Source: Klebsiella phage ST11-OXA245phi3.1. Taken from it: a DNA stretch of 33,326 nt. A program made the position numbers and the translations under genes. Under the pieces are notes generated by a model. The model made no database searches and was not told where the DNA came from. It worked only from the letters and a program-made list of their open reading frames with translations. Of the stretch, positions 1 through 21,502 are shown piece after piece. The stretch lies in the sequence record MK416009.1; one strand, given 5' to 3'. Within the stretch, counting starts at the first letter, position 1. Every line of letters begins with the position of its first letter.

Positions 1-936
1 TTATACATTTTTAGTAAAAACTCTTTTACATTTTGCCAAAACGATAATGTCAGTAAGTAAGCATTCAAAACTTGCGTTAGTGCCTACAACTTTAACCATA
101 CCAACGGGTATGCGAGTCAAATCTTTGATGCTTATTTTCCCTTCAATATTCACAAGCCACTTGCCATCAGTAACTTCATTAAATTTTGATTCTACAATAT
201 ATATTTCCTCATCAATGAATACTGCTAAAGGTTGCAGAAAGGTTCCTTCTAACAACTTAGAGTCAAAAGTCAAAACGGTTTCTTGAGCAAGAGATCCATC
301 AATTATTTTATGATATGGGATAGTGATAGTATTGATTCGAGGCTTTTCAAACATTGCCCCGTTACCAGTGGTTAGCCATGTTAATGAAGCACCAGTTTCC
401 AGTGAGCATTGAATAATCCAGTCAGCAGGAAAGGTATCTCTCATGTAACGATTGGCTAATGTACTTTTTGATACACCAATATGATCAGCTAAAGCTTGTC
501 TTGTCTTAAATCCATAAGCCAAAACGATTCGCTCTATTGCTGCTTTTCCGCCTTGGTTAATAGTAAAAAAGTTCTCATTTTGGATGTCTTGTTCTCTATT
601 GAGATGTTGATGCTTGCTGTCACAATTGTTGTGACTTTTTTCTGCATTATTTGTAATTCTTCCCTTCTCTGTATCAGTGCCAAATGCCAACCACTCGACC
701 GGCACTCCAGTCTCCATGCTACAGATAACGACCCAATCAGCAGGGAAAGTGTCACGGGCATACCTGTTCGCCATTGTACTTTGCGATATACCTAGGTGAT
801 TACAGAATGCTTGTCGGGAAGAAAAACCATAGGCTTTCAGTATCCGAGCTATAACCGATTGCCCTCCGCGATTCTGCATGATTAAGGATTTCTTTTTTTC
901 GTCCACATGGCGAAATGTGATTTCGTGTGTTGACAT
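1..936 (-). CDS. cI: Immunity repressor of 186 CI type. It has two tandem phage-CI-type HTH domains plus a non-peptidase C-terminal domain.
   Basis: Complete 311-aa ORF with its stop codon at positions 1-3. Two homologous ~85-aa segments are present (...ARILKAYGFSSRQAFCNHLGISQSTMANRYARDTFPADW... and ...IERIVLAYGFKTRQALADHIGVSKSTLANRYMRDTFPADW...). It is divergent from an apl/cII operon. No S24 Ser-Lys dyad motif (G-D-S-M type) was seen in the C-terminal domain. Confidence 0.7.
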   Translation of the reverse strand: MSTHEITFRHVDEKKKSLIMQNRGGQSVIARILKAYGFSSRQAFCNHLGISQSTMANRYARDTFPADWVVICSMETGVPVEWLAFGTDTEKGRITNNAEKSHNNCDSKHQHLNREQDIQNENFFTINQGGKAAIERIVLAYGFKTRQALADHIGVSKSTLANRYMRDTFPADWIIQCSLETGASLTWLTTGNGAMFEKPRINTITIPYHKIIDGSLAQETVLTFDSKLLEGTFLQPLAVFIDEEIYIVESKFNEVTDGKWLVNIEGKISIKDLTRIPVGMVKVVGTNASFECLLTDIIVLAKCKRVFTKNV

Positions 937-1024
937 AACCGATTTGTGATCCTATTCTCCGAAATGTGAAGTTGAAGCCACGATTAAAACTGACTCACCA
1001 CAAGCCAATAGGAGATGTTGCATC
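937..1024. promoter_or_regulatory. Lysis-lysogeny switch region (pR/pL-type promoters and operators) between cI and apl.
   Basis: An 88-bp intergenic region lies between the minus-strand repressor gene and the plus-strand apl-cII operon. An AGGAG RBS sits before the apl ATG at 1025. I did not resolve individual operators. Confidence 0.35.
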
Positions 1025-1246
1025 ATGACCCCTAACATTTCAATAACCCTGAATACGCCACATGTCACAATTGAGCGTTATAGCGAACTTACTGGTCTTT
1101 CAATCGACACAATTAACGATATGCTGGCTGACGGTCGCATCCCTCGGCATCGCCTTCGGAAAGACAAGAAAAGAGAAAAGGTGATGATCAACCTTGCTGC
1201 TCTTACCGTTGATGCACTTACTGATTGCAATGTTGTATTCAACTAG
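1025..1246 (+). CDS. apl: Apl/Cox-like excisionase and transcriptional regulator.
   Basis: 73-aa ORF that is the first gene of the rightward operon, immediately upstream of cII. It is small and basic with an HTH-like region ([24 protein letters not shown]). An AGGAG RBS lies 12 nt upstream. Confidence 0.6.
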
Positions 1247-1278
1247 TTCCATTTTGGGATGCATCAGGGGTGTCGACC

Positions 1279-1788
1279 ATGTTTGATTACCAAGTTTCCA
1301 AACATCCACATTTTGATGAAGCCTGTCGTGCATTCGCATTGCGCCACAACCTGGTGCAACTGGCAGAACGTGCTGGCATGAATGTGCAGATTCTGCGGAA
1401 CAAGCTGAACCCAGCTCAACCTCATTTATTAACCGCACCAGAAATCTGGCTGCTTACCGATCTGACTGAAGATTCAACGCTGGTAGATGGTTTTCTGGCA
1501 CAGATTCATTGTCTGCCATGTGTACCGATTAATGAGGTGGCAAAAGAGAAACTGCCACATTACGTCATGAGTGCAACCGCAGAGATCGGGCGTGTTGCAG
1601 CAGGTGCGGTATCTGGCGATGTAAAAACCAGTGCAGGTCGTCGTGATGCTATCAGCAGCATTAACTCTGTAACACGACTGATGGCGCTGGCCGCTGTTTC
1701 ATTGCAGGCCCGTTTACAGGCTAATCCTGCGATGGCGAGTGCAGTTGATACCGTGACTGGCCTCGGTGCTTCATTCGGTTTGCTGTGA
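1279..1788 (+). CDS. cII: CII-like lysogeny establishment activator (186 CII family).
   Basis: 169 aa from the ATG at 1279, the same length as 186 CII. The N-terminus [19 protein letters not shown] and the internal [25 protein letters not shown] match my memory of 186 CII closely. Confidence 0.8.
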
Positions 1789-1795
1789 GGTGCTT

Positions 1796-1996
1796 ATGCT
1801 GACGAAAGAACCATCATTTGCATCGCTGCTGGTAAAACAAAGTCCGGCAATGCACTACGGGCACGGCTGGATCATGGGTGAGGATGGTAAACGCTGGCAT
1901 CCGTGCCGTTCACAAGATGAATTGCTGGCAGAACTATCTACGAAAAAACAGGGGAACAAATGGCTATTGAAGGCGCTGCGGCGACTGTTCCATTAA
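1796..1996 (+). CDS. Hypothetical early protein, at the position of 186 fil.
   Basis: 66-aa ORF from the ATG at 1796 with a GAGGTG RBS. It lies in the early operon after cII. I recognise no domain. Confidence 0.4.
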   Translation: MLTKEPSFASLLVKQSPAMHYGHGWIMGEDGKRWHPCRSQDELLAELSTKKQGNKWLLKALRRLFH

Positions 1997-2301
1997 GCCC
2001 CGGTGAACGCCTGAACGGACTTAATCACATTGCGGAATTAAGGGCGAAAGTATTTGGCCTGAATATTGAGTCAGAGCTTGAGCGGTTTATTAAAGATATG
2101 CGTGATCCACGGGATATCAATAATGAACAAAATAAACGGGCACTGGCTGCCATATTCTTTATGGCAAAAATCCCAGCTGAACGTCATAGCATCAGCATTA
2201 ATGAGCTGACCACTGACGAAAAGCGGGAGCTGATTAAAGCAATGAATCATTTTCGTGCAGTGGTGAGCTTATTTCCCAGACGGCTAACCATGCCGAATTA
2301 A
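1960..2301 (+). CDS. Hypothetical early protein, at the position of 186 dhr / P2 orf78-83.
   Basis: 113-aa ORF overlapping the previous gene by 37 nt in another frame. Codon usage matches the backbone. Confidence 0.45.
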   Translation: MAIEGAAATVPLSPGERLNGLNHIAELRAKVFGLNIESELERFIKDMRDPRDINNEQNKRALAAIFFMAKIPAERHSISINELTTDEKRELIKAMNHFRAVVSLFPRRLTMPN

Positions 2302-2368
2302 CCAACTAATGAAATTCATGGCGTAAACCCGCCGGGCATCCCTTTATCTAAATTCAGGAGAATTGATT

Positions 2369-2602
2369 ATGCGTAGTATTGAAACCCTCACGACTAAAAC
2401 CGGACCGGATGATGCAGGGCTTAATATTTTACTGACAGAGGCTCGTCTGGAAGACCGCCGGGCAAGGGCTGAAGCAATGGCAGCTCGCCTTGATAGCCTG
2501 GCGTGTCATATCACATCCCGCCAGCTAAACCACGTCGAAGCGGCAGAACTGCTGCGTGTGACTGCTGAAGCAATCCAGAACGAAGCGCAGGAGATCCACT
2601 GA
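2369..2602 (+). CDS. Hypothetical small early protein.
   Basis: 77 aa from the ATG at 2369 with an AGGAG RBS 9 nt upstream. Its stop overlaps the next start (ATGA). Confidence 0.45.
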   Translation: MRSIETLTTKTGPDDAGLNILLTEARLEDRRARAEAMAARLDSLACHITSRQLNHVEAAELLRVTAEAIQNEAQEIH

Positions 2603-2829
2603 TGGCTGATGCAATGGATCTCGTACAGCAGCGCGTTGAAGAAGAACGCCAGCGTCATATCCGTACTGCCCGCGCCAAAACGCCGGGCGTATCCCGCGTG
2701 CTTTGCATTGAGTGTGAAGCACCAATTCCGCCAGCACGACGTCGCGCCATTCCGGGTGTGCAGCTTTGCATTACCTGTCAGGAAATCGCAGAGCTGAAAG
2801 GCAAACATTACAACGGAGGTGCTGTATGA
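2602..2829 (+). CDS. TraR/DksA-family C4 zinc-finger protein.
   Basis: 75 aa carrying CIECEAPIPPARRRAIPGVQLCITCQ (Cys-x2-Cys...Cys-x2-Cys) at the C-terminus. This is typical of phage TraR-like proteins in P2 early operons. Confidence 0.65.
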   Translation: MADAMDLVQQRVEEERQRHIRTARAKTPGVSRVLCIECEAPIPPARRRAIPGVQLCITCQEIAELKGKHYNGGAV

Positions 2830-3683
2830 GCACCATCCTGAAATGGGCGGGTAATAAAACCGCCATTATGCCAGAACTGAAAAAATACCTTCCTGCTGGC
2901 CCGCGACTGGTTGAACCTTTCGCGGGTTCTTGTGCTGTGATGATAGAGACGGATTACCCCAGCTATCTTGTTGCGGATATTAATCCTGATTTAATCAACC
3001 TCTATAAAAAGGTTGCTGCTGATTGCGAGGCGTTTATATCTCGTGCCAGAGCTTTATTTGAGGAAGCAAACAGGGAGGTGGCTTATTACAACATAAGGCA
3101 GGAGTTTAATTACTCCACTGAAATTACTGATTTCATGAAAGCGGTATATTTCCTGTATCTCAATCGTCATGGTTACCGTGGGTTATGTCGCTATAACAAG
3201 AGCGGGCATTTCAACATTCCCTATGGGAATTATAAAAATCCGTATTTCCCTGAAAAAGAAATTCGCAAATTTGCAGAAAAAGCCCAGCGAGCAACGTTTA
3301 TCTGCGCCAGCTTTGATGAAACGCTGGCGATGTTGAAGGCGGGGGATGTGGTGTATTGCGATCCGCCTTATTACGGTACGTTTTCCGGCTATCACACTGA
3401 TGGCTTCACTAAGGATGACCAGTATCACCTGGCATCCGTTCTTGAACATCGATCATCTGAAGGTCATCCGGTCATTGTTTCTAACAGTGACACATCCCTG
3501 ATTCGTTCGCTGTATCGCAATTTCACTCACCACTACATCAAGGCAAAACGCAGCATCGGCGTGTCGGCTGGCGAGAGTAAATCTGCAACAGAAATCATTG
3601 CTGTTTCCGGGGCGCGCTGCTGGGTGGGATTTGCTCCTTCGCGTGGCGTAGATAGTTCTGCTGTGTACGAGGTGCGTGTATGA
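2826..3683 (+). CDS. dam: DNA adenine methyltransferase (Dam, GATC-specific N6-MTase family).
   Basis: 285 aa from the ATG at 2826. The N-terminus [15 protein letters not shown] is the AdoMet-binding motif, and a DPPY catalytic motif ([15 protein letters not shown]) is present. It sits between the small early genes and A, as in Fels-2/WPhi-type P2 phages. Confidence 0.85.
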
Positions 3684-6094
3684 GTCATGACGATATGAGC
3701 AACTCTAGCGGCTTTAACGAGGCCGCTGCATCATTTTCATGGAACGGCCCGAAAAAGGCCATTAATCCTTATCTGGACCCGGCGGAAGTTGCGCCGGAGT
3801 CTGCACTTTCAAACCTGATCACTCTGTATGCTGCCGATAACGAGCAGGAACAACTGCGCCGCGAGGCACTGAGTGAGCAGGTCTGGGAGCGTTATTTCTT
3901 TAATGAATCCCGTGATCCTGTCCAGCGCGAAATGGAGCAGGATAAGCTCATTAGCCGGGTAAAGCTGGCGCATGAGCAGCAGCGTTTTAATCCAGACATG
4001 GTCATTCTGGCTGACGTCAACGCCCAGCCTTCCCATATCAGCAAGCCGCTGATGCAACGTATTGAATACTTCAGCAGCCTGGGCAGGCCAAAGGCTTATT
4101 CCCGCTATTTGCGTGAGACGATTAAGCCATGTCTGGAACGACTGGAGCATGTACGCGACAGTCAGCTATCCACTTCTTTTCGCTTTATGGCAAGCCATGA
4201 AGGGCTGGACGGCCTGCTGATCCTGCCTGAAATGAGTCAGGATCAGGTGAAACGCCTGTCTACCCTTGTCGCTGCGCATATGAGCATGTGTCTTGATGCC
4301 GCTTGTGGTGATTTGTACGCCACCGATGATGTTAAGCCAGAAGAAATCCGCAAGACATGGGAAAAGGTGGCAGCGGAAACCCTACGTTTGGATGTCATCC
4401 CGCCTGCGTTTGAGCAACTCCGTCGGAAAAGAAACCGCCGTAAACCAGTGCCCTATGAACTCATTCCGGGCTCGCTGGCGCGTATGCTGTGCGCCGACTG
4501 GTGGTATCGGAAATTGTGGAAGATGCGTTGTGAATGGCGGGAAGAGCAGTTGCGTGCTGTCTGCCTGGTCAGCAAAAAAGCATCTCCCTATGTCAGCTAT
4601 GAAGCTGTGATGCATAAACGTGAGCAGCGCCGTAAGTCGCTGGAGTTTTTCCGTTCTCATGAACTGGTGAACGAAGACGGCGACACGCTGGACATGGAAG
4701 ATGTGGTAAACGCCAGCTGCAGCAACCCGGCGCATCGCCGCAATGAGATGATGGCCTGTGTTAAAGGTCTGGAGCTTATCGCGGAAATGCGCGGTGACTG
4801 CGCCGTTTTCTACACCATTACCTGTCCGTCACGTTTCCATTCCACGCTCAATAACGGCAGACCCAATCCGACCTGGAAAAACGCGACGGTAAGACAAAGC
4901 AGCGATTATCTGGTCGATATGTTTGCTGCATTTCGTAAGGCGATGCACAAAGCCGGGTTGCGCTGGTATGGCGTGCGGGTGGCTGAGCCGCATCACGACG
5001 GCACAGTTCACTGGCACCTGTTGTGTTTCATGCGCAAAAAAGACCGCCGCGCCATTACTGCATTGTTGCGTAAGTTTGCTATCCGTGAAGACCGCGAGGA
5101 GCTGGGCAATAACACGGGGCCGCGCTTTAAGTCTGAGCTGATTAACCCGCGCAAAGGAACGCCGACAAGCTACATAGCGAAATACATCAGTAAGAACATT
5201 GACGGGCGTGGTCTGGCTGGCGAGATCAGCAAGGAAACGGGTAAATCTCTTCGTGATAACGCTGAATACGTGAATGCCTGGGCGTCTTTGCATCGTGTTC
5301 AGCAATTCCGCTTCTTTGGTATTCCGGGGCGTCAGGCTTACCGTGAACTGCGATTGCTGGCTGGTCAGGCGGCAAGGCAGCAGGGTGACAAAAAAGCAGG
5401 TGTGCCGGTACTGGATAACCCGCGCCTTGATGCCATTCTGGCTGCTGCTGATGCTGGTTGTTTTGCCACCTATATCATGAAGCAGGGAGGTGTACTGGTT
5501 CCCCGTAAATATCACCTCATCAGAACTGCTTATGAAATTAACGAAGAGCCGACCGCCTATGGCGATCACGGTATTCGTATTTATGGCATCTGGTCACCCA
5601 TTGCAGAGGGCAAGATCTGCACTCATGCAGTGAAGTGGAAAATGGTTCGTAAGGCCGTTGACGTTCAGGAGGCGGCAGCCGACCAGGGCGCTTGCGCCCC
5701 TTGGACTCGTGGCAATAACTGTCCCCTTGCTGAAAATTTGAACCAACAAGGGAAAGACAAATCAGCTGATGGGGATACCAGGACGGACATTACCCGCATG
5801 GATGACAAGGAGTTGCACGATTACCTGCACAGTATGAGCAAAAAAGAGCGCCGGGAACTGGCTGCAAGGTTACGCCTGGTGAAACCGAAACGGCGTAAAG
5901 ACTACAAACAGCGAATTACAGACCATCAGCGACAGCAGCTCGTCTATGAACTGAAGTCCAGAGGATTTGATGGCAGCGAGAAAGAGGTCGATTTACTCCT
6001 TCGCGGCGGCAGTATTCCATCAGGAGCAGGCCTGCGTATCTTCTATCGGAACCAGCGTTTGCAGGAAGATGATAAGTGGCGAAACCTGTATTAA
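3680..6094 (+). CDS. A: Replication initiation endonuclease, gene A (rolling-circle).
   Basis: 804 aa. The conserved catalytic tyrosine region [12 protein letters not shown] and the His motif [10 protein letters not shown] are present. Position and size match P2/186 gpA. Confidence 0.85.
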
Positions 6095-6186
6095 TTACGC
6101 GGGTTAACAATTCGTGCTCTTAATAATACCAGGCATATCAGGCTGATGAACGTAAAAAAACGTTTTACATCAGTAATATTATTATA

Positions 6187-6206
6187 TACTGTAAATATAA
6201 ACAGTG
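6187..6206. promoter_or_regulatory. LexA (SOS) box overlapping a sigma70-like promoter.
   Basis: TACTGTAAATATAAACAGTG fits CTGT-N8-ACAG with an AT-rich spacer and is close to the consensus TACTGTATATATATACAGTA. TTTACA and TATACT -35/-10-like hexamers lie immediately upstream and overlapping. The box sits 40 bp upstream of the ORF at 6248. Confidence 0.6.
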
Positions 6207-6247
6207 GCTATACATACAGTGTTGCTTGTGGTGTCATAGGAGGAAAG

Positions 6248-6436
6248 ATGCAGGACTATTTTTTGGAGTCTTTGAAGCTCCAGCGCATTGATTTTTTTCT
6301 TAAGCTTGTAGCGGCTAGTGAGTGTAGTGATGAAGAGAAGGGGCTGGCTTTGCAGTGGGTTTCTGAACTGACAGATGAACTCATGGCAAAAATCAGAACC
6401 CACGAATACAACCGCTCAATGGATGTCATCAGCTGA
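6248..6436 (+). CDS. Small hypothetical protein, first gene of the SOS-controlled operon and a candidate antirepressor.
   Basis: 62 aa with an AGGAGGA RBS 4-10 nt upstream. It is downstream of the LexA box and 10 nt upstream of the DinI-like gene. Confidence 0.45.
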   Translation: MQDYFLESLKLQRIDFFLKLVAASECSDEEKGLALQWVSELTDELMAKIRTHEYNRSMDVIS

Positions 6437-6446
6437 GGTGACTTTT

Positions 6447-6680
6447 ATGCGCATTGAAATAATGATCGATAAAGAGCAGAAGATTAGCCAGTCTACCCTG
6501 GACGCCCTTGAATCCGAGCTTTACCGCAATCTGCGCCCCCTGTATCCCAAAACGGTAATCCGTATCCGTAAAGGTAGCTCTAACGGTGTGGAACTGACCG
6601 GACTGCAACTGGACGAAGAAAGAAAACAAGTGATGAAAATTATGCAGAAGGTGTGGGAAGACGACAGCTGGCTGCATTGA
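6447..6680 (+). CDS. DinI-family protein (DinI/MsgA/Tum C-terminal-domain-like).
   Basis: 77 aa, MRIEIMIDKEQKISQSTLDALESELYRNL...VWEDDSWLH. It resembles E. coli DinI (MRIEVTIAKT...ETWESADDWF) in length, N-terminal MRIE start and acidic C-terminal W-rich tail. A GAGGTGA RBS is present. Confidence 0.7.
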   Translation: MRIEIMIDKEQKISQSTLDALESELYRNLRPLYPKTVIRIRKGSSNGVELTGLQLDEERKQVMKIMQKVWEDDSWLH

Positions 6681-6734
6681 TTTTGTCAATAGACGCTTGT
6701 TTTTTCTAATCAAAAAGGGTTACATATGAGTGAG

Positions 6735-6769
6735 AGGCGATGATCAATCAGATATCGCCTTGTTTTTTG
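6735..6769 (+). terminator. Rho-independent terminator of the SOS operon.
   Basis: AGGCGAT...ATCGCCT stem followed by TGTTTTTTG. Confidence 0.45.
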
Positions 6770-6794
6770 TCAAGAAAAGAATAATAGGCTAAAA

Positions 6795-7472
6795 ATGAAA
6801 ATTAATAATGTAGCGTTACCAATATCTCTTGCTGTAATCCTAACTGGTTGCGTACCACATGCTTCTAACCGAAATATCACTGCTATTGAAGTGGTGAAGC
6901 CTGCTATTGGGCAAAGTGCTACCGCCTACATGGGCGATCCCATTATCACATCTGCTACTGGATTTAAAACGGACGTATTAGAACTTGGTGCGGCTAATGG
7001 TGCATTGTCTTCTATCGCTGCTGGTACATATTGCAGTGAGGGGAATGGAATTTATCGCAATTATCATAACCCTCAAGCTGTTGCGTTAAAAAATCTCTAT
7101 GGGCAAATCGGTAACTATGTTGATTATGTTAGTTACGATGCTGCAAAAAATGAGATATCACCGCCAAATGGCACTTCTTATACTGCATCAGAAATTTCTA
7201 TCAAACGTGTTCCTGATGGGCTGTGTCGAGTGAGTAACTCATTGGTTAAGACTATCGAATACAATGGAAATGCAGGCGGTGTAATGAAGTTCACCTATCG
7301 TGAATTTGCAAACGATATGGCTCGTGCAGCATTTACAACAGATTTTTCTGTAGATTCTAAAGGAAGTGATGTTATCGCTTACAAAGGTGCCAAGTTCAAA
7401 GTGAACAAGGCTGATAACTCGTCTATTTCTTATACCATTATTTCTGGCTTTGACAAGGCTGTCACGTTCTAG
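6795..7472 (+). CDS. Predicted lipoprotein of unknown function (moron).
   Basis: 225 aa. The N-terminus MKINNVALPISLAVILTGC has a signal peptide plus a lipobox (LTG-C). It lies in a low-GC (~40%) region that departs from backbone composition. Confidence 0.7.
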   Translation: MKINNVALPISLAVILTGCVPHASNRNITAIEVVKPAIGQSATAYMGDPIITSATGFKTDVLELGAANGALSSIAAGTYCSEGNGIYRNYHNPQAVALKNLYGQIGNYVDYVSYDAAKNEISPPNGTSYTASEISIKRVPDGLCRVSNSLVKTIEYNGNAGGVMKFTYREFANDMARAAFTTDFSVDSKGSDVIAYKGAKFKVNKADNSSISYTIISGFDKAVTF

Positions 7473-7576
7473 GTTTCACGCTTACTGAGTATGTTACGAT
7501 TTTGCACATTCTGCATAAACGCGCATGTCTATGCTGCATGAGATCGCATGATCGTTTGAGGATCTTTTGTGTTAAG

Positions 7577-7600
7577 GCCCGCCAGTTCTAGCGGGCTTTT
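7577..7600 (+). terminator. Rho-independent terminator.
   Basis: GCCCGC-cagttcta-GCGGGC stem followed by TTTTG. Confidence 0.5.
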
Positions 7601-7645
7601 GCGTAGATCATGCAGGTGCATGAAAACCACTACATAAAGTGGGCA

Positions 7646-7664
7646 GGCGTGGCGGGGATACGAG
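7646..7664. other. Putative cos (cohesive end site) of the prophage.
   Basis: GGCGTGGCGGGGATACGAG followed by CGCGCGCTG. It resembles the P2/186 19-nt cohesive ends as I remember them (GGCGAGGCGGGGAAAGCAC / GGCGTGGCGGGGAAAGCAT, followed by ..GCGCGCTG). It lies between gene A and portal Q, as expected for a P2-type genome. Confidence 0.4.
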
Positions 7665-7747
7665 CGCGCGCTGGAGGGATAAATGGAATTGAAAATGTAC
7701 CTTCTTAGAGATAACCTTCGCTAAAACTTTATTACTAAGGAGTGATA

Positions 7748-9490
7748 ATGAGTACCTGGAACCAAGCCTATTCTGCAAGAGAAGATTTGAAATCGTATGG
7801 TGATAATGGACTGGCTTTGTTTGCGTTAGCATTACATTTCAGAATTGATGATATTGATAGTGTCGCAGCAGAGTCCATTACCGATGGACATGACGATAAG
7901 AAATGTGACCTTGTGTATATTAATGAAGAAGAAGAATTTGCTGTACTTGCTCAATGCTATTTCTCAAGCAAAGATAGACAGGAAGCTCCAGCAAATAAAG
8001 CGAGTGATCTTAATATTGCTTTAGCATGGCTTCTGCAAAGAGATTTGCATGATGTACCCGATAGAATAAAATCTTCTGCTCAACAGATACGGACATCAAT
8101 CAAACAAGGGAAAATTAAAACTCTGTACGTTTGGTATGTTCATAACTTACCATCTTCAACAAATGTGGCTCAAGAGCTAATTACGGTTCAGCAGACAGCA
8201 GCAACTATTTTAAAACATGATTTTGAAGATGCTAAAATACAAGTGCATGCAATGGAAGTAGGCACTGAAAAGTTGACGGAATGGTATAGTGAATCACTAT
8301 CACCAATACTGGTTGATGAGATTTTCAATATTAAAGTCAGTGATGGTGGCTATGAAATAAAAGGAGATAATTGGAATGCATTCTGTACTACCATTCAGGG
8401 AAGAGATTTAGCTAGAGCGTACAAAAAGCATAAATTAAAAATATTTTCAGCAAATGTTAGAGACTACCTTGGATCAAGGTCATCTGATTCAAATATCAAT
8501 AATGGTATCCGTAACAGTGCGGAAAATTCAGCATCAGAATTTTGGGCATACAATAATGGCGTAACTGTTTTGGTTCATGAATATAAATTCAATGAAGCAT
8601 CAAAGAATCTTGAAATCAGAGGGATGTCAATAGTTAATGGAGCACAGACAACAGGTGCTTTAGGAACGCTGCCACGATTACCTCCAGAATCAGTTAAAGT
8701 CCAAGCTAGATTTATAAAAGTCAAAGATGCGGATGCTGATCTAATTCAGAATATAATTCAGTATAATAACAGTCAGAATAAAGTTGAAGCATCTGATTTC
8801 AGAAGCACAGACAAAATTCAAAAACGACTTAAAAATGAATTTGCTTCTATTCCTGATGCTGAATATGATGGAGGAAGACGAGGAGGTGCTGAAAGTGTCA
8901 TTCGTCGAAAAACTAATCTACTGCCTTCTTATACTGTTGGTCAAGCTTTGATGAGTTTCCATGGAGAGCCGACGATAGCTTATAATCAGCGATCTGCAAT
9001 TTGGACTAATGACTCTCATTATTCTAAGATTTTTAATGACAGTACAAAAGCTTCACATATTGTTTGTGCGTATTCTCTCATGCGGTGTATTGAGAACAAG
9101 AAAATAGCTTTGGCAAAGAAAGATACTCTTTCAAAAAATGATAGCGCTCAATTGGGATATCTCAGGCATCGTGGTTCAATACCTTTATTGTGCTCGGCTA
9201 TTGCCGAATGTTTGGAAAACTTTTTGGGCCGTCCCGTTCCTAATTTATTTAGAGTTTCGTTTGGAAGTACGGTCTCTCCTTCTCAGGCTGAAAGTATTTG
9301 GGAGCCAATTGTAGATGTGTGTCTGGCTTTAAGTAATCAGTTGCTGCCTGCACTGGTTGAAGGAGGGTTGAAAAGTCCTACAAAAGTTAAAGATTGTATA
9401 TCAAATTTTTCACAGCTTATTACTGCAACGGCCCAAATGAACCAGCCTGTATATGAGGCATTTGAGAAAAAAATCAAATCCGCATTCTAA
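7748..9490 (+). CDS. AIPR-like (abortive infection phage resistance, PF10592-like) protein. Candidate anti-phage defence cargo.
   Basis: 580 aa from the ATG at 7748, with a perfect AAGGAG SD 5 nt upstream. GC is about 36%. It contains an SIVNGAQTTGALGT motif, which I recall as the conserved AIPR core, and has no Walker A/B motifs. It lies at the cos-Q junction of the defence hotspot. Confidence 0.55.
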   Translation: MSTWNQAYSAREDLKSYGDNGLALFALALHFRIDDIDSVAAESITDGHDDKKCDLVYINEEEEFAVLAQCYFSSKDRQEAPANKASDLNIALAWLLQRDLHDVPDRIKSSAQQIRTSIKQGKIKTLYVWYVHNLPSSTNVAQELITVQQTAATILKHDFEDAKIQVHAMEVGTEKLTEWYSESLSPILVDEIFNIKVSDGGYEIKGDNWNAFCTTIQGRDLARAYKKHKLKIFSANVRDYLGSRSSDSNINNGIRNSAENSASEFWAYNNGVTVLVHEYKFNEASKNLEIRGMSIVNGAQTTGALGTLPRLPPESVKVQARFIKVKDADADLIQNIIQYNNSQNKVEASDFRSTDKIQKRLKNEFASIPDAEYDGGRRGGAESVIRRKTNLLPSYTVGQALMSFHGEPTIAYNQRSAIWTNDSHYSKIFNDSTKASHIVCAYSLMRCIENKKIALAKKDTLSKNDSAQLGYLRHRGSIPLLCSAIAECLENFLGRPVPNLFRVSFGSTVSPSQAESIWEPIVDVCLALSNQLLPALVEGGLKSPTKVKDCISNFSQLITATAQMNQPVYEAFEKKIKSAF

Positions 9491-9495
9491 CTAAA

Positions 9496-9519
9496 AGAAG
9501 GCCTTGTAAGAGGCCTTCT
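9496..9519. terminator. Bidirectional rho-independent terminator between the convergent AIPR-like and Q genes.
   Basis: Perfect 9-bp stem AGAAGGCCT / AGGCCTTCT with a 6-nt loop, flanked by A/T runs on both sides. Confidence 0.55.
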
Positions 9520-9551
9520 TGATATTTTACTGATCAGCGAACATATTGTCG

Positions 9552-10580
9552 TCATAATGAGTATGTCGCAAAACGAATAATTTCATCTTTCAACCATCTA
9601 TTTAGTTCCTGTAGCCGTTTCTGTAGCGGCATTAATTCGTTACGAACAAAAACGCAACTGGCTTTCTCTACATCCCCAAACCCTCCAACATTATTAGGCA
9701 TAATCCCCATCATTTGCGGCGGCACGCGGTGCGCAGCCATCATGTCGTCGCGGCTGACATTTTTGATATTCAGAAATTCATCCTTCGCCGCGACTTCTGA
9801 TAACGGGATGATTTGAAGCCCGTCTTTTTTACCGTTAGGCGAGTACATAAACAGGTTACGGAAGTTACCAGGACCTTTGGCACTTTTCATCGCGTTGCGG
9901 AGATTGTTCACATCCTCCTGATTCTGCGCGGCATCGGTCATATACATGATGAAGCCTGCATGGCTGCCGTTGATGTAATACTTGCGGCGGAACAGCGTGG
10001 CGGACTCGTTGAGCAAAGCGGATGGGATGGCAGAAAGATAACCGGGCAGGCCGTAGATCTCCTGGTTGATGTCCGGTTCCATCAGATGAAAAATGCTGCC
10101 TTTCGTGAACTGATACGGCTGGGTTGTCATACCATATTGCACAAACCAGTAAGTATCCATGTCTAATCCGCGTCGGGTGTATTTTGCCAGAGCAGGCTCA
10201 AGGGCGATAACTTCACCGAAGCGGTTAGTGCGTTTCTCCAGGTAGGCGTTACCAAAAACCAGATAGTCCTGCACAAAACGTGAAAAAGCCTGCTGGCTGA
10301 GCAGCGGGTGAGGGATATAGGTGCTGGTCAGAATATTGCACTTTACTGCAATCGGTGAGCTGTGATGCACGGCGGCGCGGAAGGTTCGCGCCAGTCCGTC
10401 AAAACTCACTGGCGGCTCATACCAGCGATCTGTCTGTACGCATTCCACATAGTCCAGTAGTTCGCGGCGATCCAGAACTGGAATGGGATCGCCGAAGCTG
10501 AATGCTTCGGCTGAAGTCTGGCTTTTATGCTGGGTCTGGTTCTGCGACGCAGCGCGGTTCTTCTTACTCTTTCCCATCAA
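9552..10580 (-). CDS. Q: Portal protein (P2 gpQ).
   Basis: 342 aa; P2 gpQ is about 344 aa. It is first in a leftward Q-P operon that overlaps P by 4 nt. Confidence 0.85.
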   Translation of the reverse strand: MMGKSKKNRAASQNQTQHKSQTSAEAFSFGDPIPVLDRRELLDYVECVQTDRWYEPPVSFDGLARTFRAAVHHSSPIAVKCNILTSTYIPHPLLSQQAFSRFVQDYLVFGNAYLEKRTNRFGEVIALEPALAKYTRRGLDMDTYWFVQYGMTTQPYQFTKGSIFHLMEPDINQEIYGLPGYLSAIPSALLNESATLFRRKYYINGSHAGFIMYMTDAAQNQEDVNNLRNAMKSAKGPGNFRNLFMYSPNGKKDGLQIIPLSEVAAKDEFLNIKNVSRDDMMAAHRVPPQMMGIMPNNVGGFGDVEKASCVFVRNELMPLQKRLQELNRWLKDEIIRFATYSL

Positions 10581-12343
10581 AAAATCTCCACAATATTACT
10601 GGTATTGGCGGACTCGCCCTGCAGTGGTTCGTTAAACAGTGCGTGCATTGTTGCCCACGCCAGATCGGCGTGGCTGGTTTCTTCGCTGCGGCTGGCTTCA
10701 TACGTCGGGCGGTTGCCACTGGCGGTGGTGGCGCGACGGATTGCCATGAATGACTGCGCAATGTCGGTGTGCCCGGCGTCAAACTCCAGACGGCGGTGGC
10801 TGATAATGTCGTAGGCCTTGAGTACCAGAGCGTTTTTAACGTTGGGGTTGTAGACAAACTCCCGGACGGCAGGAAAAAACGCTTTCACGTTCTCGTAAAC
10901 CCCGTGACCGACGCCGGTTGAGTCGATACCGATGTATGTCACGTTGTACTGTTCAGTCAGTTTTTTGATGGCGTCAGCCTGGGCGCGGAAGTCCATCCCG
11001 CGCCACTGGTGACGCTCAAGAATGCGGAACTTACCGCCCGGCACGGCTGGCGGTGCCACCACCACGCACCCGGCGCTGTCGCCGTTTTGCGTACCTTTTG
11101 CCGGGTCATAACCGATCCACACTTCGCGCCAGCCAAACGGGCGCAGGGCCAGTGCATGAAAGTCGGTCCAGACTTCCCAGCTGTCCACCATGCACGCCTG
11201 CAGCTCGCTGAGCGGAAACACGGACGCGAGATCGTCCACAAACTCGCACATCAGCAGGTTCTGGTATTCGTCCGGGCTGTACTCCATGCGCAACTGGTCG
11301 AGATCGAACAGGTTACATCCGCCGCGCACAGCATCTTCCACGGTGACTATCTGGCGGTATTGCCCGTCTGCGCACAGCAGGCCGGGGGCCAGATTGCTGT
11401 GGGACAGGTCGATGTCCACCTTATCGGCTTTGTTGCGCCCACGGTTGAACAGCGCACCGGACCAGAACGGATAAGCACTGTGTGTCAGGCTGGATGGTGT
11501 GGAAAAATAGGTTTGTCGCCATTTTTTGTGAATAGCCATACCGGAAGCCACTTTGCGCAGCTCCTGGAATTTCGGTATCCAGAAATATTCATCCAGATAC
11601 AGGTTGCCGTGGTAACTCTGGGCCGTGCGGGCATTGGTGCCGAGGAAGTAAAGCGTAGCCCCGCTGGGAAGCACCATCGGATCGCCTTTCAGCTCCACTT
11701 CCACTTCTTTGGCGAAGTCGATGATGTACTGTTTAAAGACGTGGGCCTGTGCCTTACTGGCGGAAAGGAAAATCTGGTTACGTCCGGTAAGCAGGGCGTC
11801 AATCAGGGCTTCACGGGCAAAGTAAAAGGTCGCGCCGACCTGGCGTGACTTCAGCAGGTTGCGGATGCGGTTGGTTTTTCCGGCTTCCCACCAGTGGCGC
11901 TGGTAGTTGAACATGGAGGAATGGAAGATTTCTTCCAGCTTCTCAATCTGTTCATCGGTGAAAACGTTCTTTTCCGGCTGACGACGCGGGCCTTTGTTGC
12001 GGTTGGCGACGTTAGGGTTTAAGTCGGCTTCGTTGCCGCCATTGTTAAACTTGCCGATCCGCGCGTGGCGCTCCGACTGGCGCGCCAGCAGGTCAATCTC
12101 TTTGAAATCTTTCCCTTCTTTGTGCTCCTTCATGATGAGCTGGCAGTAGCGTGCGGCGGTGGTGAGCTGCATCTGATCCAGCGGCCCATAGTCACCCCAC
12201 TTGTCGCGTTTCTTCCAGCTGTGAACGGTTGCAACTTTCTCGCCCAGCATTTCAGCAATGCGGGCTACGCGATATCCCTGAAAGTACAGCAGCATGGCCT
12301 GCCGACGGGGATCGAGATCTGCGGATGTCAGTGTGGTGTTCAT
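10577..12343 (-). CDS. P: Terminase large subunit (ATPase, P2 gpP).
   Basis: 588 aa with a Walker A-like region and a nuclease C-terminal domain. P2 gpP is 590 aa and sits in the equivalent position. Confidence 0.9.
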   Translation of the reverse strand: MNTTLTSADLDPRRQAMLLYFQGYRVARIAEMLGEKVATVHSWKKRDKWGDYGPLDQMQLTTAARYCQLIMKEHKEGKDFKEIDLLARQSERHARIGKFNNGGNEADLNPNVANRNKGPRRQPEKNVFTDEQIEKLEEIFHSSMFNYQRHWWEAGKTNRIRNLLKSRQVGATFYFAREALIDALLTGRNQIFLSASKAQAHVFKQYIIDFAKEVEVELKGDPMVLPSGATLYFLGTNARTAQSYHGNLYLDEYFWIPKFQELRKVASGMAIHKKWRQTYFSTPSSLTHSAYPFWSGALFNRGRNKADKVDIDLSHSNLAPGLLCADGQYRQIVTVEDAVRGGCNLFDLDQLRMEYSPDEYQNLLMCEFVDDLASVFPLSELQACMVDSWEVWTDFHALALRPFGWREVWIGYDPAKGTQNGDSAGCVVVAPPAVPGGKFRILERHQWRGMDFRAQADAIKKLTEQYNVTYIGIDSTGVGHGVYENVKAFFPAVREFVYNPNVKNALVLKAYDIISHRRLEFDAGHTDIAQSFMAIRRATTASGNRPTYEASRSEETSHADLAWATMHALFNEPLQGESANTSNIVEIF

Positions 12344-12389
12344 GGCACAAACCTACAGCCTTGAATGAAGGCTTTCCCCGCCTGCGGTT

Positions 12390-12407
12390 TGTGTGGTTGT
12401 CGGTACA
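12390..12407. promoter_or_regulatory. Ogr/B-type late activator binding site (TGT-N12-ACA) in the divergent P/O late promoter region.
   Basis: TGTgtggttgtcggtACA, centred about 88 bp upstream of the O start codon and 55 bp from the P start. Confidence 0.45.
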
Positions 12408-12485
12408 AATACCGTGCATTGTTTCACTGCCCTCATCACCGCAACCATAAGGCTCCAGTAAGTTTTTTCTAACGGAGCACGGCTC

Positions 12486-13319
12486 ATGACAGTGAAAGCA
12501 AAGCGTTTTCGCATCGGGGTGGAAGGTGCCACCACCGACGGACGCGAAATCCAGCGTGAATGGCTGGAACAGATGGCAGCCAGCTACAACCCGGCAGTGT
12601 ATACCGCGCTGATTAACCTTGAGCACATCAAGTCTTATCTGCCGGACAGCACCTTTAACCGCTACGGCAAGGTAACGGCGCTGTTTGCTGAAGAAATCAC
12701 GGAAGGTCCGCTGGCAGGCAAGATGGCGCTGTATGCCGACGTTGAGCCAACGGAGTCCCTGGTGGAGCTGGTGAAAAAAGGCCAGAAATTATTCACTTCT
12801 ATGGAAGTCAGCCCGAAGTTCGCTGATACGGGCAAAGCCTACCTGGTTGGCCTGGCTGCCACTGATGATCCAGCCAGTCTGGGTACGGAAATGCTGACAT
12901 TCAGCGCCAGTGCAGCCCATAACCCGCTGGCAAACCGCAAGCAGAATCCCGCCAATCTCTTTACCGCCGCAGAGGAAACGGTGATCGAACTGGAAGAAAT
13001 CCAGGAGGACAAGCCGTCCCTGTTTGCCCGCGTCACGGCGCTGTTCACCAAAAAAGAGCAGTCCGACGATGCCCGGTTCTCTGATGTGCATAAGGCCGTG
13101 GAGCTGGTCGCCACTGAGCAGCAAAACCTGAGCGCACGCACCGAAAAATCCCTGTCTGAGCAGGAAGAACGCCTGTCTGAGCTGGAGACAGCCCTGCAGG
13201 CACAACAGGCCGCCTTTAACGAACTGGTGGACAAGCTGAGCCATGAGGACTGCCGCCAGGACTACCGCCAGCGTGCAACAGGCGGTAACGCCCCCGCTGA
13301 CACTCTGACCAATTGCTGA
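12486..13319 (+). CDS. O: Capsid scaffolding protein (P2 gpO).
   Basis: 277 aa in the equivalent position, with an acidic, coiled-coil-rich C-terminus. Confidence 0.85.
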   Translation: MTVKAKRFRIGVEGATTDGREIQREWLEQMAASYNPAVYTALINLEHIKSYLPDSTFNRYGKVTALFAEEITEGPLAGKMALYADVEPTESLVELVKKGQKLFTSMEVSPKFADTGKAYLVGLAATDDPASLGTEMLTFSASAAHNPLANRKQNPANLFTAAEETVIELEEIQEDKPSLFARVTALFTKKEQSDDARFSDVHKAVELVATEQQNLSARTEKSLSEQEERLSELETALQAQQAAFNELVDKLSHEDCRQDYRQRATGGNAPADTLTNC

Positions 13320-13335
13320 TGGAGCATAAAACCCG

Positions 13336-14394
13336 ATGAAGAAGAATACCCGCTTTGCTTTTAACGCTTACCTGCAGCAGCTGGCGCGTCTGAACGGTGT
13401 GGCAGCTGAAGAACTGTCCAGCAAGTTCACCGTGGAGCCGTCTGTACAGCAGACGCTGGAAGACCAGATCCAGCAGTCCGCCGCTTTCCTGACGCTGATT
13501 AACGTCACGCCAGTGACTGAGCAGTCCGGTCAGCTGCTGGGGCTGGGGGTTGGCAGCACCATTGCCGGAACCACTGACACCACCGCGAAAGAGCGTGAAC
13601 CTGTCGATCCGACGCTGATGGTCGATGTGGAATACAAATGCGAACAGACCAACTTTGACACGGTGCTGACCTACGCGAAGCTGGACCTGTGGGCGAAGTT
13701 TCAGGATTTCCAGGTGCGTATCCGTAACGCCATCGTGAAACGTCAGGCACTGGACCGCATCATGATCGGCTTTAACGGCGTGAAGCGTGCGAAAACCTCC
13801 AACCGTAGCGAAAACCCGCTGCTGCAGGATGTGAACAAAGGCTGGCTGCAGAAAATCCGTGAGGATGCACCGGAGCACGTCATGGGCAGCACCACCACGG
13901 GCGGTGAAACCACACCGGGTGCGGTGAAAGTCGGTAAAGGTGGCGAATATGCCAACCTGGACGCCGTGGTGATGGATGCCGTTAATGAGCTTATCGACGT
14001 GGTCTACCAGGACGATGACGATCTGGTGGTGATTTGCGGTCGTGAACTGCTGTCTGACAAGTATTTCCCGCTGGTCAACAAAGAGCAGGAAAACAGTGAA
14101 AAACTGGCAGCCGATATGATTATCAGTCAGAAACGCATGGGCGGTCTGCAGGCCGTGCGTGCGCCGTTCTTCCCGCCGAATGCGCTGCTGATCACCCGTC
14201 TGGATAACCTGTCCATCTACTGGCAGGAAGACACCCGCCGCCGTTCAGTTATCGACAACCCGAAACGTGACCGGATTGAAAACTTTGAATCTGTTAACGA
14301 AGCCTATGTGGTTGAGGACTACCGCTGCGCCGCACTGGTGGAAAACATCCAGATTGGCGATTTCAGCGCCGCCGCAGCAGAAGCCGGAGCGTAA
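13336..14394 (+). CDS. N: Major capsid protein (P2 gpN).
   Basis: 352 aa; P2 gpN is 357 aa. Order is conserved. Confidence 0.9.
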   Translation: MKKNTRFAFNAYLQQLARLNGVAAEELSSKFTVEPSVQQTLEDQIQQSAAFLTLINVTPVTEQSGQLLGLGVGSTIAGTTDTTAKEREPVDPTLMVDVEYKCEQTNFDTVLTYAKLDLWAKFQDFQVRIRNAIVKRQALDRIMIGFNGVKRAKTSNRSENPLLQDVNKGWLQKIREDAPEHVMGSTTTGGETTPGAVKVGKGGEYANLDAVVMDAVNELIDVVYQDDDDLVVICGRELLSDKYFPLVNKEQENSEKLAADMIISQKRMGGLQAVRAPFFPPNALLITRLDNLSIYWQEDTRRRSVIDNPKRDRIENFESVNEAYVVEDYRCAALVENIQIGDFSAAAAEAGA

Positions 14395-14397
14395 CCT

Positions 14398-15048
14398 ATG
14401 AGCCTGAGTCCCGCACGGCAGCATCGCCTGCGCGTTCAGGCTGAACAGGCCGCCCGTGAAGGCGGCAGTGTTCGCCACGCGTCGGGCTATGACCTGATGC
14501 TGCTGCAACTGGCGGAAGACCGCCGCCGTCTCAAGGGCGTTCAGTCCACGGTGAAAAAAGCGGAAATAAAGGTGGAGCTGCTGCCGAAATATGCCGCCTG
14601 GGCGGAGGGCGTCCTGGCTGCCGGAGGCGCTCAACAGGATGACGTGCTGATGTACGTGATGCTGTGGCGCATTGATGCCGGAGATTATGCCGGGGCGCTG
14701 GAGATCGGGCGTCATGCCCTGCGTCATGGCTGGGTGATGCCGCTGGGTAACCGCAACGTGCAGACCGTGCTGGCAGAGGAAATGGCAGATGCAGCCCAGA
14801 GCGCAATGCTTGCCGCCACCGGCTTTGATGCCGATCTGTTGCTGCAGACGCTGGAGCTGACAGACGGTCTGGATATGCCGGACCAGTCACGGGCGCGTCT
14901 GCATAAAGCGATTGGCGCTGTCCTGAGTGAAAGCAATCCGGCTTCCGCCCTTAATCATCTTAACCATGCGTTACAGCTCGATCCCCGCTGTGGCGTGAAA
15001 AAAGACAAACAGCAGCTGGAGCGCAGACTGCGCAATGACAGCCGCTGA
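14398..15048 (+). CDS. M: Terminase small (endonuclease) subunit (P2 gpM).
   Basis: 216 aa in the equivalent position. Confidence 0.8.
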   Translation: MSLSPARQHRLRVQAEQAAREGGSVRHASGYDLMLLQLAEDRRRLKGVQSTVKKAEIKVELLPKYAAWAEGVLAAGGAQQDDVLMYVMLWRIDAGDYAGALEIGRHALRHGWVMPLGNRNVQTVLAEEMADAAQSAMLAATGFDADLLLQTLELTDGLDMPDQSRARLHKAIGAVLSESNPASALNHLNHALQLDPRCGVKKDKQQLERRLRNDSR

Positions 15049-15143
15049 CAGAACGTGCCCCCGCGCACGGGCGGCACGGGGTGGCGAAAGGCACCGCCAC
15101 ATCAAAACCCCGTCCACCGCCCTCTATTTCAGGAGAAAGCAGC

Positions 15144-15608
15144 ATGAAGTTTGTTGCGCCAGAACAGGCACCGGAACAGGCGGAAATCATCAGAAATACG
15201 CCGTTCTGGCCTGATGTGGACCTGTCGGAGTTTCGCAGCGTGATGCGCACTGACGGCACGGTGACGCAGCCGCGTTTAAAGCAGGTTGCGCTGTCGGCAA
15301 TTTCGGAGGTCAACGCAGAGCTGTATGAGTTTCGCAGACGCCAGCAGATGCTGGGGTATGCCTCGCTGGCAGAGGTTCCGGCAGAACAGCTGGACGGGAA
15401 AAGTGAGCGCATTCAGCACTATTTCAACGCGGTTTACTGCTGGGCACGCGCCATGCTCAACGAACGATACCAGGACTATGACGCCACGGCATCCGGTGTG
15501 AAGCGCGGCGAAGAACTGGCAGAAGCCAGCGGTGATTTGTGGCGTGACGCCCGCTGGGCCGTCAGCCGGGTGCAGGATGCGCCGCACTGCACAGTGGAGC
15601 TGATCTGA
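15144..15608 (+). CDS. L: Head completion/stabilisation protein (P2 gpL).
   Basis: 154 aa from the ATG at 15144 with an AGGAGA RBS. It lies in the L position. Confidence 0.75.
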   Translation: MKFVAPEQAPEQAEIIRNTPFWPDVDLSEFRSVMRTDGTVTQPRLKQVALSAISEVNAELYEFRRRQQMLGYASLAEVPAEQLDGKSERIQHYFNAVYCWARAMLNERYQDYDATASGVKRGEELAEASGDLWRDARWAVSRVQDAPHCTVELI

Positions 15609-15811
15609 TGAAAGTGCGTGCGTACCAGGGTGACACGGTGGACGCGCTTTGCTGGCGTCATTACGGACGCACGCAGGGCGTCACGGAGCAGGTACTGCAG
15701 GCAAATCCGGGGCTGGCTGAGCACGGCCCGTTCTTACCACACGGGCTGCAGGTGGATCTGCCGGATATTGCCACCACCTCCACGGTGCAGACCGTCCAGT
15801 TATGGGACTGA
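15608..15811 (+). CDS. X: Tail protein X (LysM-like).
   Basis: 67 aa, the same length as P2 gpX. Its start overlaps the L stop (ATGA). Confidence 0.7.
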   Translation: MKVRAYQGDTVDALCWRHYGRTQGVTEQVLQANPGLAEHGPFLPHGLQVDLPDIATTSTVQTVQLWD

Positions 15812-15814
15812 AAT

Positions 15815-16030
15815 ATGACGCTTGAACGGATCAGCGCCTTCATCACGTACTGCATCGCTGTACTGCTGGCATGGATGGGAGATTTATCGCTTAAGGATGT
15901 GTCGACAGTGGGCGGTGTGTTGATTGGCGTGCTGATGCTGGCCATCAACTGGTACTACAAACACAAAACCTACCAGCTGCTGCGCGGCGGAAAAATTACA
16001 CGGGGGGAATATGAATCCTTCAACCGTTAA
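15815..16030 (+). CDS. Holin, pinholin-like with two TM segments.
   Basis: 71 aa with two hydrophobic segments (ISAFITYCIAVLLAWMG and VGGVLIGVLMLAINWYY) and a charged C-terminus. It lies immediately upstream of and overlapping the endolysin. Confidence 0.65.
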   Translation: MTLERISAFITYCIAVLLAWMGDLSLKDVSTVGGVLIGVLMLAINWYYKHKTYQLLRGGKITRGEYESFNR

Positions 16031-16520
16031 ACGCTGCCTGGTAGGGGCGGTGCTGGCGATTGCCGCCACCCTGCCGGGCTTTCAGCAACTTCATACCTCA
16101 ATGGAAGGGTTGAAGCTGATAGCCGATTACGAGGGCTGCCGCCTGCAGCCGTATCAGTGTGATGCGGGGGTGTGGACCGATGGCATTGGCAATACGTCCG
16201 GCGTGGTGCCGGGGAAGACCATCACGGAACGGCAGGCCGCCGGGAGTTTCATCACCAACGTTTTAAGGGTGGAGAAGGCGCTGGATCGCTGTGTCCTGGT
16301 GAGCGTACCGCAGAACGTCTATGACGCGCTGGTATCGCTGGCCTTCAACGTGGGAACCGGCAATGCCTGCGGTTCAACCATGGTGAAGTTTATCAATCAG
16401 AAGCGCTGGCGCGAGGCCTGCTATCAGTTGCCACGCTGGGTATACGTCAAAGGCGTATTTAATCCGGGACTGGACAACCGCCGCGCGCGGGAGCTGTCCT
16501 GGTGCTTAAAAGGAGCGTAA
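16011..16520 (+). CDS. SAR-type endolysin (GH24, T4-lysozyme/P21 R family).
   Basis: 169 aa. The N-terminal hydrophobic signal-anchor-release segment is RCLVGAVLAIAATLPG, followed by the EG..L..Y.C.AGVWTDGIGNT catalytic region of GH24 lysozymes. Confidence 0.8.
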   Translation: MNPSTVKRCLVGAVLAIAATLPGFQQLHTSMEGLKLIADYEGCRLQPYQCDAGVWTDGIGNTSGVVPGKTITERQAAGSFITNVLRVEKALDRCVLVSVPQNVYDALVSLAFNVGTGNACGSTMVKFINQKRWREACYQLPRWVYVKGVFNPGLDNRRARELSWCLKGA

Positions 16521-16524
16521 CGAA

Positions 16525-21501: not shown

Positions 21502-21502
21502 T

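Follow-up and report, generated by a model that had tools for sequence, protein, structure and literature searches.

An AIPR-family gene carried as accessory cargo beside the cos site of a P2-like Klebsiella prophage

Introduction

The cos-proximal interval between gpA and gpQ is a well documented hotspot in P2-like phages, with 1,650 arrangements recorded in 18,150 loci (Rousset et al., 2022; PMC9122126). In that study defence was obtained from three of the eight newly cloned cargos, in addition to old–tin, and its P2 and P4 tables both list arrangements containing an AIPR gene. The related AbiU has also been reported from the P2 and P4 hotspots in a 2026 study (PMC13586616).

AbiU of L. lactis (AbiU1/AbiUi), a member of the AIPR family (PF10592, COG1479-related), confers phage resistance on its own, reducing the efficiency of plating (EOP) only 10- to 100-fold, and delays phage transcription (PMC13064643). 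Members of the AIPR/AbiU family are routinely counted as defence proteins, and yet none has been characterized biochemically or structurally. The preliminary description of the DNA studied here stated that AIPR-type proteins have no known mechanism, which is correct as far as biochemistry is concerned but leaves aside the ParB-superfamily nuclease domain predicted in 2013 (PMC3632139), as well as the FokI-like nuclease fold reported for AbiU in 2026 with AlphaFold2 and the delayed transcription mentioned above (PMC13064643).

Here, we describe an AIPR gene in Klebsiella phage ST11-OXA245phi3.1 (MK416009.1). The window, meaning the whole stretch of DNA that was analysed, comprises 33,326 nucleotides. 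Its bases 1–18,281 correspond, position by position and in reverse complement, to the sequence of Klebsiella phage ST437-OXA245phi4.2 (NC_049449.1; Felsduovirus), in which the gene is 100% identical. It is labelled 'Abi alpha-like abortive infection mechanism' in NC_049449.1 and 'AIPR protein' in GenBank.

Results and discussion

Genomic context and limits of the cassette

The AIPR open reading frame occupies positions 7748–9490 on the plus strand and encodes 580 amino acids counted from its ATG, in an intact frame. An upstream GTG at 7742 would extend the product to 582 amino acids, but lies inside the Shine–Dalgarno (SD) sequence; RefSeq and GenBank make an identical call of a 1743-bp CDS. 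The gene is located between gpA and gpQ and adjoins a putative cos site, with the following surroundings:

3680–6094, gene A (gpA); Pfam Phage_GPA, E = 1e-127
6248–6436, plus strand, conserved ORF of 62 amino acids on the A side of cos
6447–6680, plus strand, DinI-like gene on the A side of cos; Pfam DinI, E = 6.6e-23; PHROG 698
6795–7472, plus strand, gene for a predicted lipoprotein of 225 amino acids on the A side of cos, with a signal-like N-terminus and an LTGC lipobox
7577–7600, plus strand, GC-rich terminator-like hairpin upstream of cos, read from the sequence as GCCCGC, 8 nt and GCGGGC followed by TTTT
7642–7672, core of a cos site of the P2/186/P4 type, assigned by homology
7646–7664, equivalent of the 19-nt cohesive end, GGCGTGGCGGGGATACGAG, assigned by homology
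9552–10577, minus strand, portal gene Q; Pfam Phage_portal and annotation
10577–12343, minus strand, large terminase gene P

The cos site suspected in the preliminary description is supported by alignment of its core with the cos of P4, with a Klebsiella P4-like cos (both sequences taken from Table S2A of Rousset et al.) and with two P2-like prophages from E. coli. A search with the P2 cos 19-mer, allowing up to three mismatches, returned no match; the site differs from that of P2 at five positions and is nearer to the 186/Klebsiella type.

On the A side of cos, the pair formed by the 62-amino-acid ORF and the DinI-like gene is common to E. coli P2-like prophages and is annotated in the loci of four relatives. 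The lipoprotein gene is a second low-GC cargo (GC 0.404), which is missing in three E. coli relatives and lies outside the AIPR cassette; its product matches PHROG 1353, of unknown function, and gave no match to Pfam or PADLOC. The hairpin at 7577–7600 went unreported by the terminator scan and is kept in three aligned prophages.

Where other prophages have a different cargo, homology with them stops approximately 8 nt after the cos core and resumes at about the stop codon of Q, and the cassette is therefore taken to span approximately 7673–9551. A repeat search around it found no flanking direct or inverted repeats indicative of a transposon-type insertion, and an Rfam scan of positions 6000–9700 found no RNA family.

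Distribution of the gene and variability of the site

Comparison of the locus by synteny across P2-like prophages, a check that the preliminary description had proposed, revealed sharp homology breakpoints and a variable cargo. The same slot is occupied by a gene for a PIN protein in an E. coli P2-like prophage, by genes for a hypothetical protein and a reverse transcriptase (RT) in Klebsiella phage 4LV2017 and by a distant AIPR gene, the product of which is 25% identical to that described here, in Salmonella phage RE-2010. Among 1237 complete E. coli genomes with a matching cos flank, the AIPR gene is present in 17 (∼1.4%), always annotated as 'AIPR family protein' and always adjoining the portal gene; 13 E. 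coli genomes, as well as Klebsiella, have copies that are identical or more than 99% identical. For approximately 1240 E. coli records, the match is limited to the cos flank. Since the gene is found in so few of the genomes with this cos flank, a structural or packaging gene conserved at this position, the outcome named in the preliminary description as contradicting a defence role, was rejected. The AIPR gene is an accessory cargo that a P2-like Klebsiella prophage (Felsduovirus) has acquired horizontally, situated in the cos-adjacent gpA–gpQ hotspot at which related phages exchange different defence genes.

Family assignment and gene neighbourhoods

The assignment to the AIPR family made in the preliminary description was upheld by profile searches. 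The Pfam AIPR model (PF10592) matched residues 233–451 with a score of 119.9 bits, far above its gathering threshold of 25 (E = 2.3e-34), the PADLOC AbiU model (PDLC02357) matched residues 101–451 (E = 1.8e-34), a partial match covering positions 125–451 of a profile of 537, and PHROG 1841 matched over the full length (E = 1e-245). Proteins 99% identical to this one bear the RefSeq name 'AIPR family protein'. The conserved core singled out from the sequence, SIVNGAQTTGALG, is found at residues 294–306, and no other motif of the family is as strongly conserved. All of the AIPR core motifs are present: NNGxT (N269-N-G-x-T273), (I/V)xNGxQT (I295-V-N-G-A-Q-T301), NxQN (N341-x-Q-N344) and DxR..D (D350, R352 and D355) are near-invariant in 108 representatives and are also common to two distant AIPRs.

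The family to which the protein belongs is large, with 5477 cluster representatives at 50% identity, from Gammaproteobacteria to Cyanobacteria, recovered at E ≤ 1e-3 in an exhaustive HMMER search, among which the full-length architecture is retained down to approximately 30% identity. Homologues of 575–585 amino acids with 99–100% query coverage and at least 53% identity were found in Gammaproteobacteria, Cyanobacteria, Bacteroidota and other groups.

In the prophage, the neighbours of the AIPR gene are the DinI-like gene, the lipoprotein gene and the portal gene; in an E. coli islet, a homologue is accompanied by HNH, resolvase and integrase genes, and in a cyanobacterial chromosome another lies between uvrA and a Uma2 gene. 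No conserved partner gene was found across these three contexts. Since the neighbourhoods have nothing in common, the gene is likely to work alone and, judged by its surroundings, is a stand-alone gene, in keeping with the single-gene system envisaged in the preliminary description.

The same neighbourhoods bear on whether the gene serves defence at all. It could instead be selfish or serve the prophage, for example as an addiction or toxin module stabilizing the prophage, or as a factor directed against P4-like satellites or against the host's own DNA transactions near cos. The hotspot does carry non-defence cargo, plasmid-partition systems being present in about one quarter of P2-like phages and a cytolethal distending toxin being encoded by about 2% of them (PMC9122126), and most of the hotspot systems cloned in that study gave no defence. 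The only hotspot AIPR cloned so far, which came from a P4 satellite and was tested under its native promoter (pFR77), is placed there among the 'additional tested systems' of Table S2B, outside the seven validated ones. This P4 AIPR is 23% identical to the protein of the prophage, whose own accession found no match among the rows of those tables listed. On the other hand, the founding member of the family, AbiU, is an experimentally selected phage-resistance gene, no antitoxin-like partner is conserved in the three contexts, and homologues occur in mobile islets and in chromosomes without any phage context, which makes it unlikely that the gene acts specifically in P2 packaging or on satellites. 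Taken together, we regard a role outside defence as improbable.

Domain organization and selection

Structure prediction, which had also been suggested in the preliminary description, yielded a full-length AlphaFold2 model (pLDDT 82, pTM 0.74) with three domains, encoded as follows:

7748–8299, plus strand, residues 1–184, predicted N-terminal nuclease-fold domain of the PD-(D/E)xK (FokI/Mrr) type
8300–8917, plus strand, residues 185–390, AIPR core (PF10592 match at residues 233–451)
8918–9490, plus strand, residues 391–580 and the stop codon, predicted all-helical conserved C-terminal domain, with H437 and E490 near-invariant

In the model, residues 1–184 display the α/β core fold typical of restriction endonucleases. 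The AIPR core, which carries the motifs N236-x-R238, N269-N-G-x-T273, N297-G-A-Q-T301-x-G303, N341-x-Q-N344, D350-x-R352 and D355, shows a weak predicted similarity to the ParB/sulfiredoxin/DUF262-like fold. The arginine-containing ParB/sulfiredoxin motif (DGQQR or GxxR) is absent from it, and the segment presumed to be its counterpart from motif resemblance and secondary structure, N297-G-A-Q-T301, has no arginine. The search for structural relatives returned no confident one for the C-terminal helical domain, and neither sequence searches nor Foldseek against the PDB found a solved relative of the protein.

The preliminary description had considered the C-terminal half, approximately residues 380–580, to be long and divergent and a possible specificity or effector domain. 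This proposal did not withstand the comparison with homologues. The mean identity to the query is 53% for residues 381–580 versus 63% for residues 1–380, homologues with as little as approximately 30% identity still align over the whole of the C-terminal part, and invariant residues extend to position 542. In comparison with an allele from E. coli that is 85% identical at the DNA level and has a dS of approximately 1, dN/dS is 0.029 for residues 1–184, 0.031 for residues 185–390 and 0.038 for residues 391–580, with an overall value of 0.033. The gene is under purifying selection that is uniform over the three domains, and a divergent C-terminal specificity module was rejected, this region being constrained like the rest of the protein.

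Within the N-terminal domain, D46, D50, D54, Q69, Y71, K84, H132 and N133 are near-invariant in the 108 representatives, which share 29–50% identity. The canonical lysine of the (D/E/Q)xK motif is replaced by Y71, this position being occupied by tyrosine in 96 of the 108 representatives and by lysine in none, and an invariant, subfamily-specific lysine, K84, lies at the beginning of the following helix. Both the P4 AIPR and the AIPR of RE-2010 display QxK where the subfamily has Q69-C-Y71, and both are devoid of a lysine at the position of K84. This distribution in the alignment suggests that the catalytic lysine may have been relocated to K84.

Since the canonical lysine is a tyrosine throughout the subfamily, nuclease activity is not assured, and the main alternative is therefore a defence protein with a non-catalytic PD-(D/E)xK fold that would bind nucleic acid and occupy or sequester phage DNA or the transcription machinery; the delayed transcription seen with AbiU would then need no cleavage. 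The substitution at Y71 is consistent with such a binding mode, as are the many DNA-binding, non-nucleolytic members of the ParB/sulfiredoxin superfamily, such as KorB and PadC, and the observation that AbiU delays but does not abolish phage transcription and affords modest protection (PMC13064643). The remainder of the putative active site argues in the opposite direction: D46, D50, D54 and Q69 are almost invariant, a set that inactive domains seldom retain at a dN/dS of approximately 0.03, and the invariant K84, together with the lack of lysine at that position in the two AIPRs of the QxK type, is the pattern expected of a relocated catalytic lysine. A purely binding function appears unlikely.

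Expression signals and base composition

Besides the coding region, the cassette includes the following signals:

7673–7747, plus strand, 5′ region specific to the AIPR cassette, containing the SD sequence and a candidate TTGAAA at 7689–7694 paired with either GATAAC at 7710–7715 or TAACCT at 7712–7717
7737–7742, plus strand, SD sequence AAGGAG, 5 nt upstream of the AIPR ATG
9495–9520, plus strand, intrinsic terminator detected by the terminator scan in the space between the AIPR and Q genes, which are convergent; hairpin with an 11-bp stem and a downstream T-run

The perfect SD sequence and the terminator of its own that had been ascribed to the gene are both in place. The terminator, missing from the aligned relatives carrying PIN and RT genes, is judged from this alignment to belong to the AIPR cassette. 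The 5′ region is identical in an E. coli prophage that carries the AIPR gene and unrelated in the one that carries the PIN gene. The promoter-like region mentioned in the preliminary description fared less well, as a σ70 scan of the plus strand from cos to the AIPR ATG found no promoter and the best pairs obtained by a lenient hexamer search by hand, TTGAAA-15-GATAAC and TTGAAA-17-TAACCT, are weak.

The AIPR gene has a GC content of 37.2%, compared with 52.9% in the remainder of the window, and a GC3 of 0.257 versus 0.568 for gene A, values that support its foreign origin. The view that this is the most compositionally foreign stretch is valid at the scale of gene length, but not at the scale of 700 bp, where the ORF at 18296–19036 (741 bp) has a lower GC content of 31.7%.

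The base composition and the weak promoter candidates raise the question of whether the gene is at present without function in its host, as a passenger that is silent or decaying. No consensus promoter is present, and the very low GC content makes silencing by H-NS plausible; H-NS silencing of AT-rich immunity loci is reported in a preprint (bioRxiv 10.64898/2026.09.05.749240), and the AT-rich AIPR cargo may be subject to it. Against decay, the frame of 580 codons is intact in DNA of 37% GC, the overall dN/dS is low relative to an allele at a dS of about 1, the gene is identical or nearly so in Klebsiella and the 13 E. coli genomes mentioned above, and both the SD sequence and the terminator are preserved. 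That the gene is a mere passenger is thus very improbable.

Proposed function

A one-protein, nuclease-based anti-phage system is the most likely working model, and one that we consider somewhat probable. AbiU of L. lactis serves as its precedent; the modest protection afforded by AbiU, the listing of the P4 AIPR outside the validated systems, the tyrosine at position 71 and the lack of a convincing promoter count against it. We infer that the AIPR protein would be expressed at a low level from the lysogen and that some feature of the infecting phage, either nucleic acid or a nucleotide, would be sensed or bound by the AIPR core together with the C-terminal domain. Nucleic acid would subsequently be cut by the N-terminal nuclease module, and cleavage would block early phage gene expression or replication, through either direct restriction or abortive infection.

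A more specific and decidedly speculative version of this model is that the AIPR subfamily of approximately 580 amino acids constitutes a self-contained, nucleotide-gated restriction enzyme with an inverted-GmrSD layout. The ParB/DUF262-like core and the helical C-terminal domain would recognize a feature of phage DNA, such as a base modification or free cos-type ends, and switch on a PD-(D/E)xK domain in which the lysine has moved from the QxK motif to K84. If true, this would provide the first mechanism for AIPR/AbiU proteins, a family of thousands of protein clusters.

The domain map, together with D54, Q69, Y71, K84 and the segment N297–T301, offers direct targets for mutagenesis. If active in Enterobacteriaceae, a compact, single-gene and phage-borne member of the family would be a convenient model, although nothing favours this particular gene over the other members, which number in the thousands.

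Comparison with known systems

The preliminary description located the gene where P2 carries tin and old. Like the AIPR gene, these are lysogenic-conversion or exclusion genes of low GC content, placed in the A–Q interval near cos, and to this extent the parallel holds. The sides of cos are nevertheless opposite: in P2, tin and old are found on the A side and read towards A, whereas the AIPR gene is on the Q side, with transcription directed towards Q, in a position where P2 has only 167 nt between cosL and Q. The protein also bears no detected homology to OLD or Tin, PADLOC having returned only AbiU and MzaE. In agreement with the absence of ATPase motifs noted previously, no Walker A motif was found in the AIPR protein, which, unlike OLD, has neither an ATPase nor a TOPRIM domain.

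MzaE, from the MZA system, has the AIPR core in common with this protein (NCBIfam NF041935, E = 1e-18; PADLOC MzaE, E = 4e-16), but only approximately 150 residues match. An identity as MzaE was rejected, the score with NF041935 being 67.3 bits against an equivalog cutoff of 1050 and the neighbours MzaA–D being absent. GmrSD/BrxU and SspE, which combine a DUF262 ParB-like NTPase with a DUF1524 HNH nuclease, are also among the closest known systems.

In relation to AbiU, the profile match is confined to residues 101–451, the subfamily described here has QxY and K84 instead of QxK, and the gene lacks a HEPN AbiU2-like neighbour. The gene resides in a Gram-negative P2-like prophage, whereas AbiU of L. 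lactis is encoded on a lactococcal plasmid. The agreement with the hotspot cargo described by Rousset et al. (PMC9122126) is close, as the gene occupies the same interval, adjoins cos and is swapped for unrelated genes in relatives. The novelty attributed to the locus in the preliminary description is not sustained: the AIPR annotation already exists in GenBank and RefSeq, AIPR genes were catalogued as hotspot cargo by Rousset et al. (2022) and AbiU was reported from the hotspot subsequently (PMC13586616), so that the presence of an AIPR gene in the P2 hotspot repeats published findings. Since it was already annotated and such cargo had already been catalogued at this site, the AIPR gene of this Klebsiella prophage is a typical example of a class already known at this locus.

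Variable cargo on both sides of cos

The interval between gpA and gpQ of P2-like phages, which adjoins cos, holds the following features besides the AIPR gene of the window (positions are those of the window unless stated otherwise).

Features at the hotspot
3872-5536 of Salmonella phage RE-2010: AIPR gene of another subfamily, 554 aa, in the cos-to-Q slot
6795-7472, + strand: gene for a predicted lipoprotein of 225 aa, having a signal peptide with an LTGC lipobox
7577-7600: GC-rich hairpin followed by TTTT, just upstream of cos

In RE-2010, another Felsduovirus, the slot that is occupied in the window is filled by a different AIPR subfamily, whose protein shares 25% identity with the window AIPR and carries the canonical QxK motif. 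The AIPR family has therefore been captured independently at this hotspot at least twice.

The lipoprotein gene (40% GC), flanked by the DinI-like gene and cos, is missing in the E. coli P2-like relatives examined, which indicates that the phage carries variable cargo of its own on the A side of cos. Its product matches PHROG 1353 (unknown function), and searches of Pfam and PADLOC returned no matches. The hairpin is kept in the E. coli relatives and is not among the terminators reported by the terminator scan; transcription of the early (A-side) operon may end here, before it reaches cos.

Other regions of the prophage

Features outside the hotspot
1-936, - strand: CI-type repressor ORF, 311 aa
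17853-18299: tail-completion-like ORF
18296-19036, - strand: ORF of 246 aa
19017-19655: baseplate-like ORF
25419-26495, + strand: second tail-fibre-like gene, 358 aa

The repressor ORF matches the Phage_CI_repr HTH domain in two stretches as well as the CI C-terminal domain, and is longer than its 210-aa counterpart (a 633-bp annotated CDS) in the E. coli prophage L001.

The window reaches its minimum GC (31.7%) at the 246-aa ORF, which lies on the opposite strand to its flanking tail-completion-like and baseplate-like neighbours. This ORF matches PHROG 2611 (unknown function) over 230 aa (E=1.5e-158), gave no match in Pfam or PADLOC, and looks like a second moron, in the place that orf30 has in P2.

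The tail-fibre-like gene, whose product matches the tail collar fibre family PHROG 4618 (E=8e-153), follows ORFs of 993 aa (21473-24454) and 243 aa (24458-25189) and precedes one of 390 aa (26634-27806). This gene possibly represents an additional host-range module, in the position that Z/fun occupies in P2.
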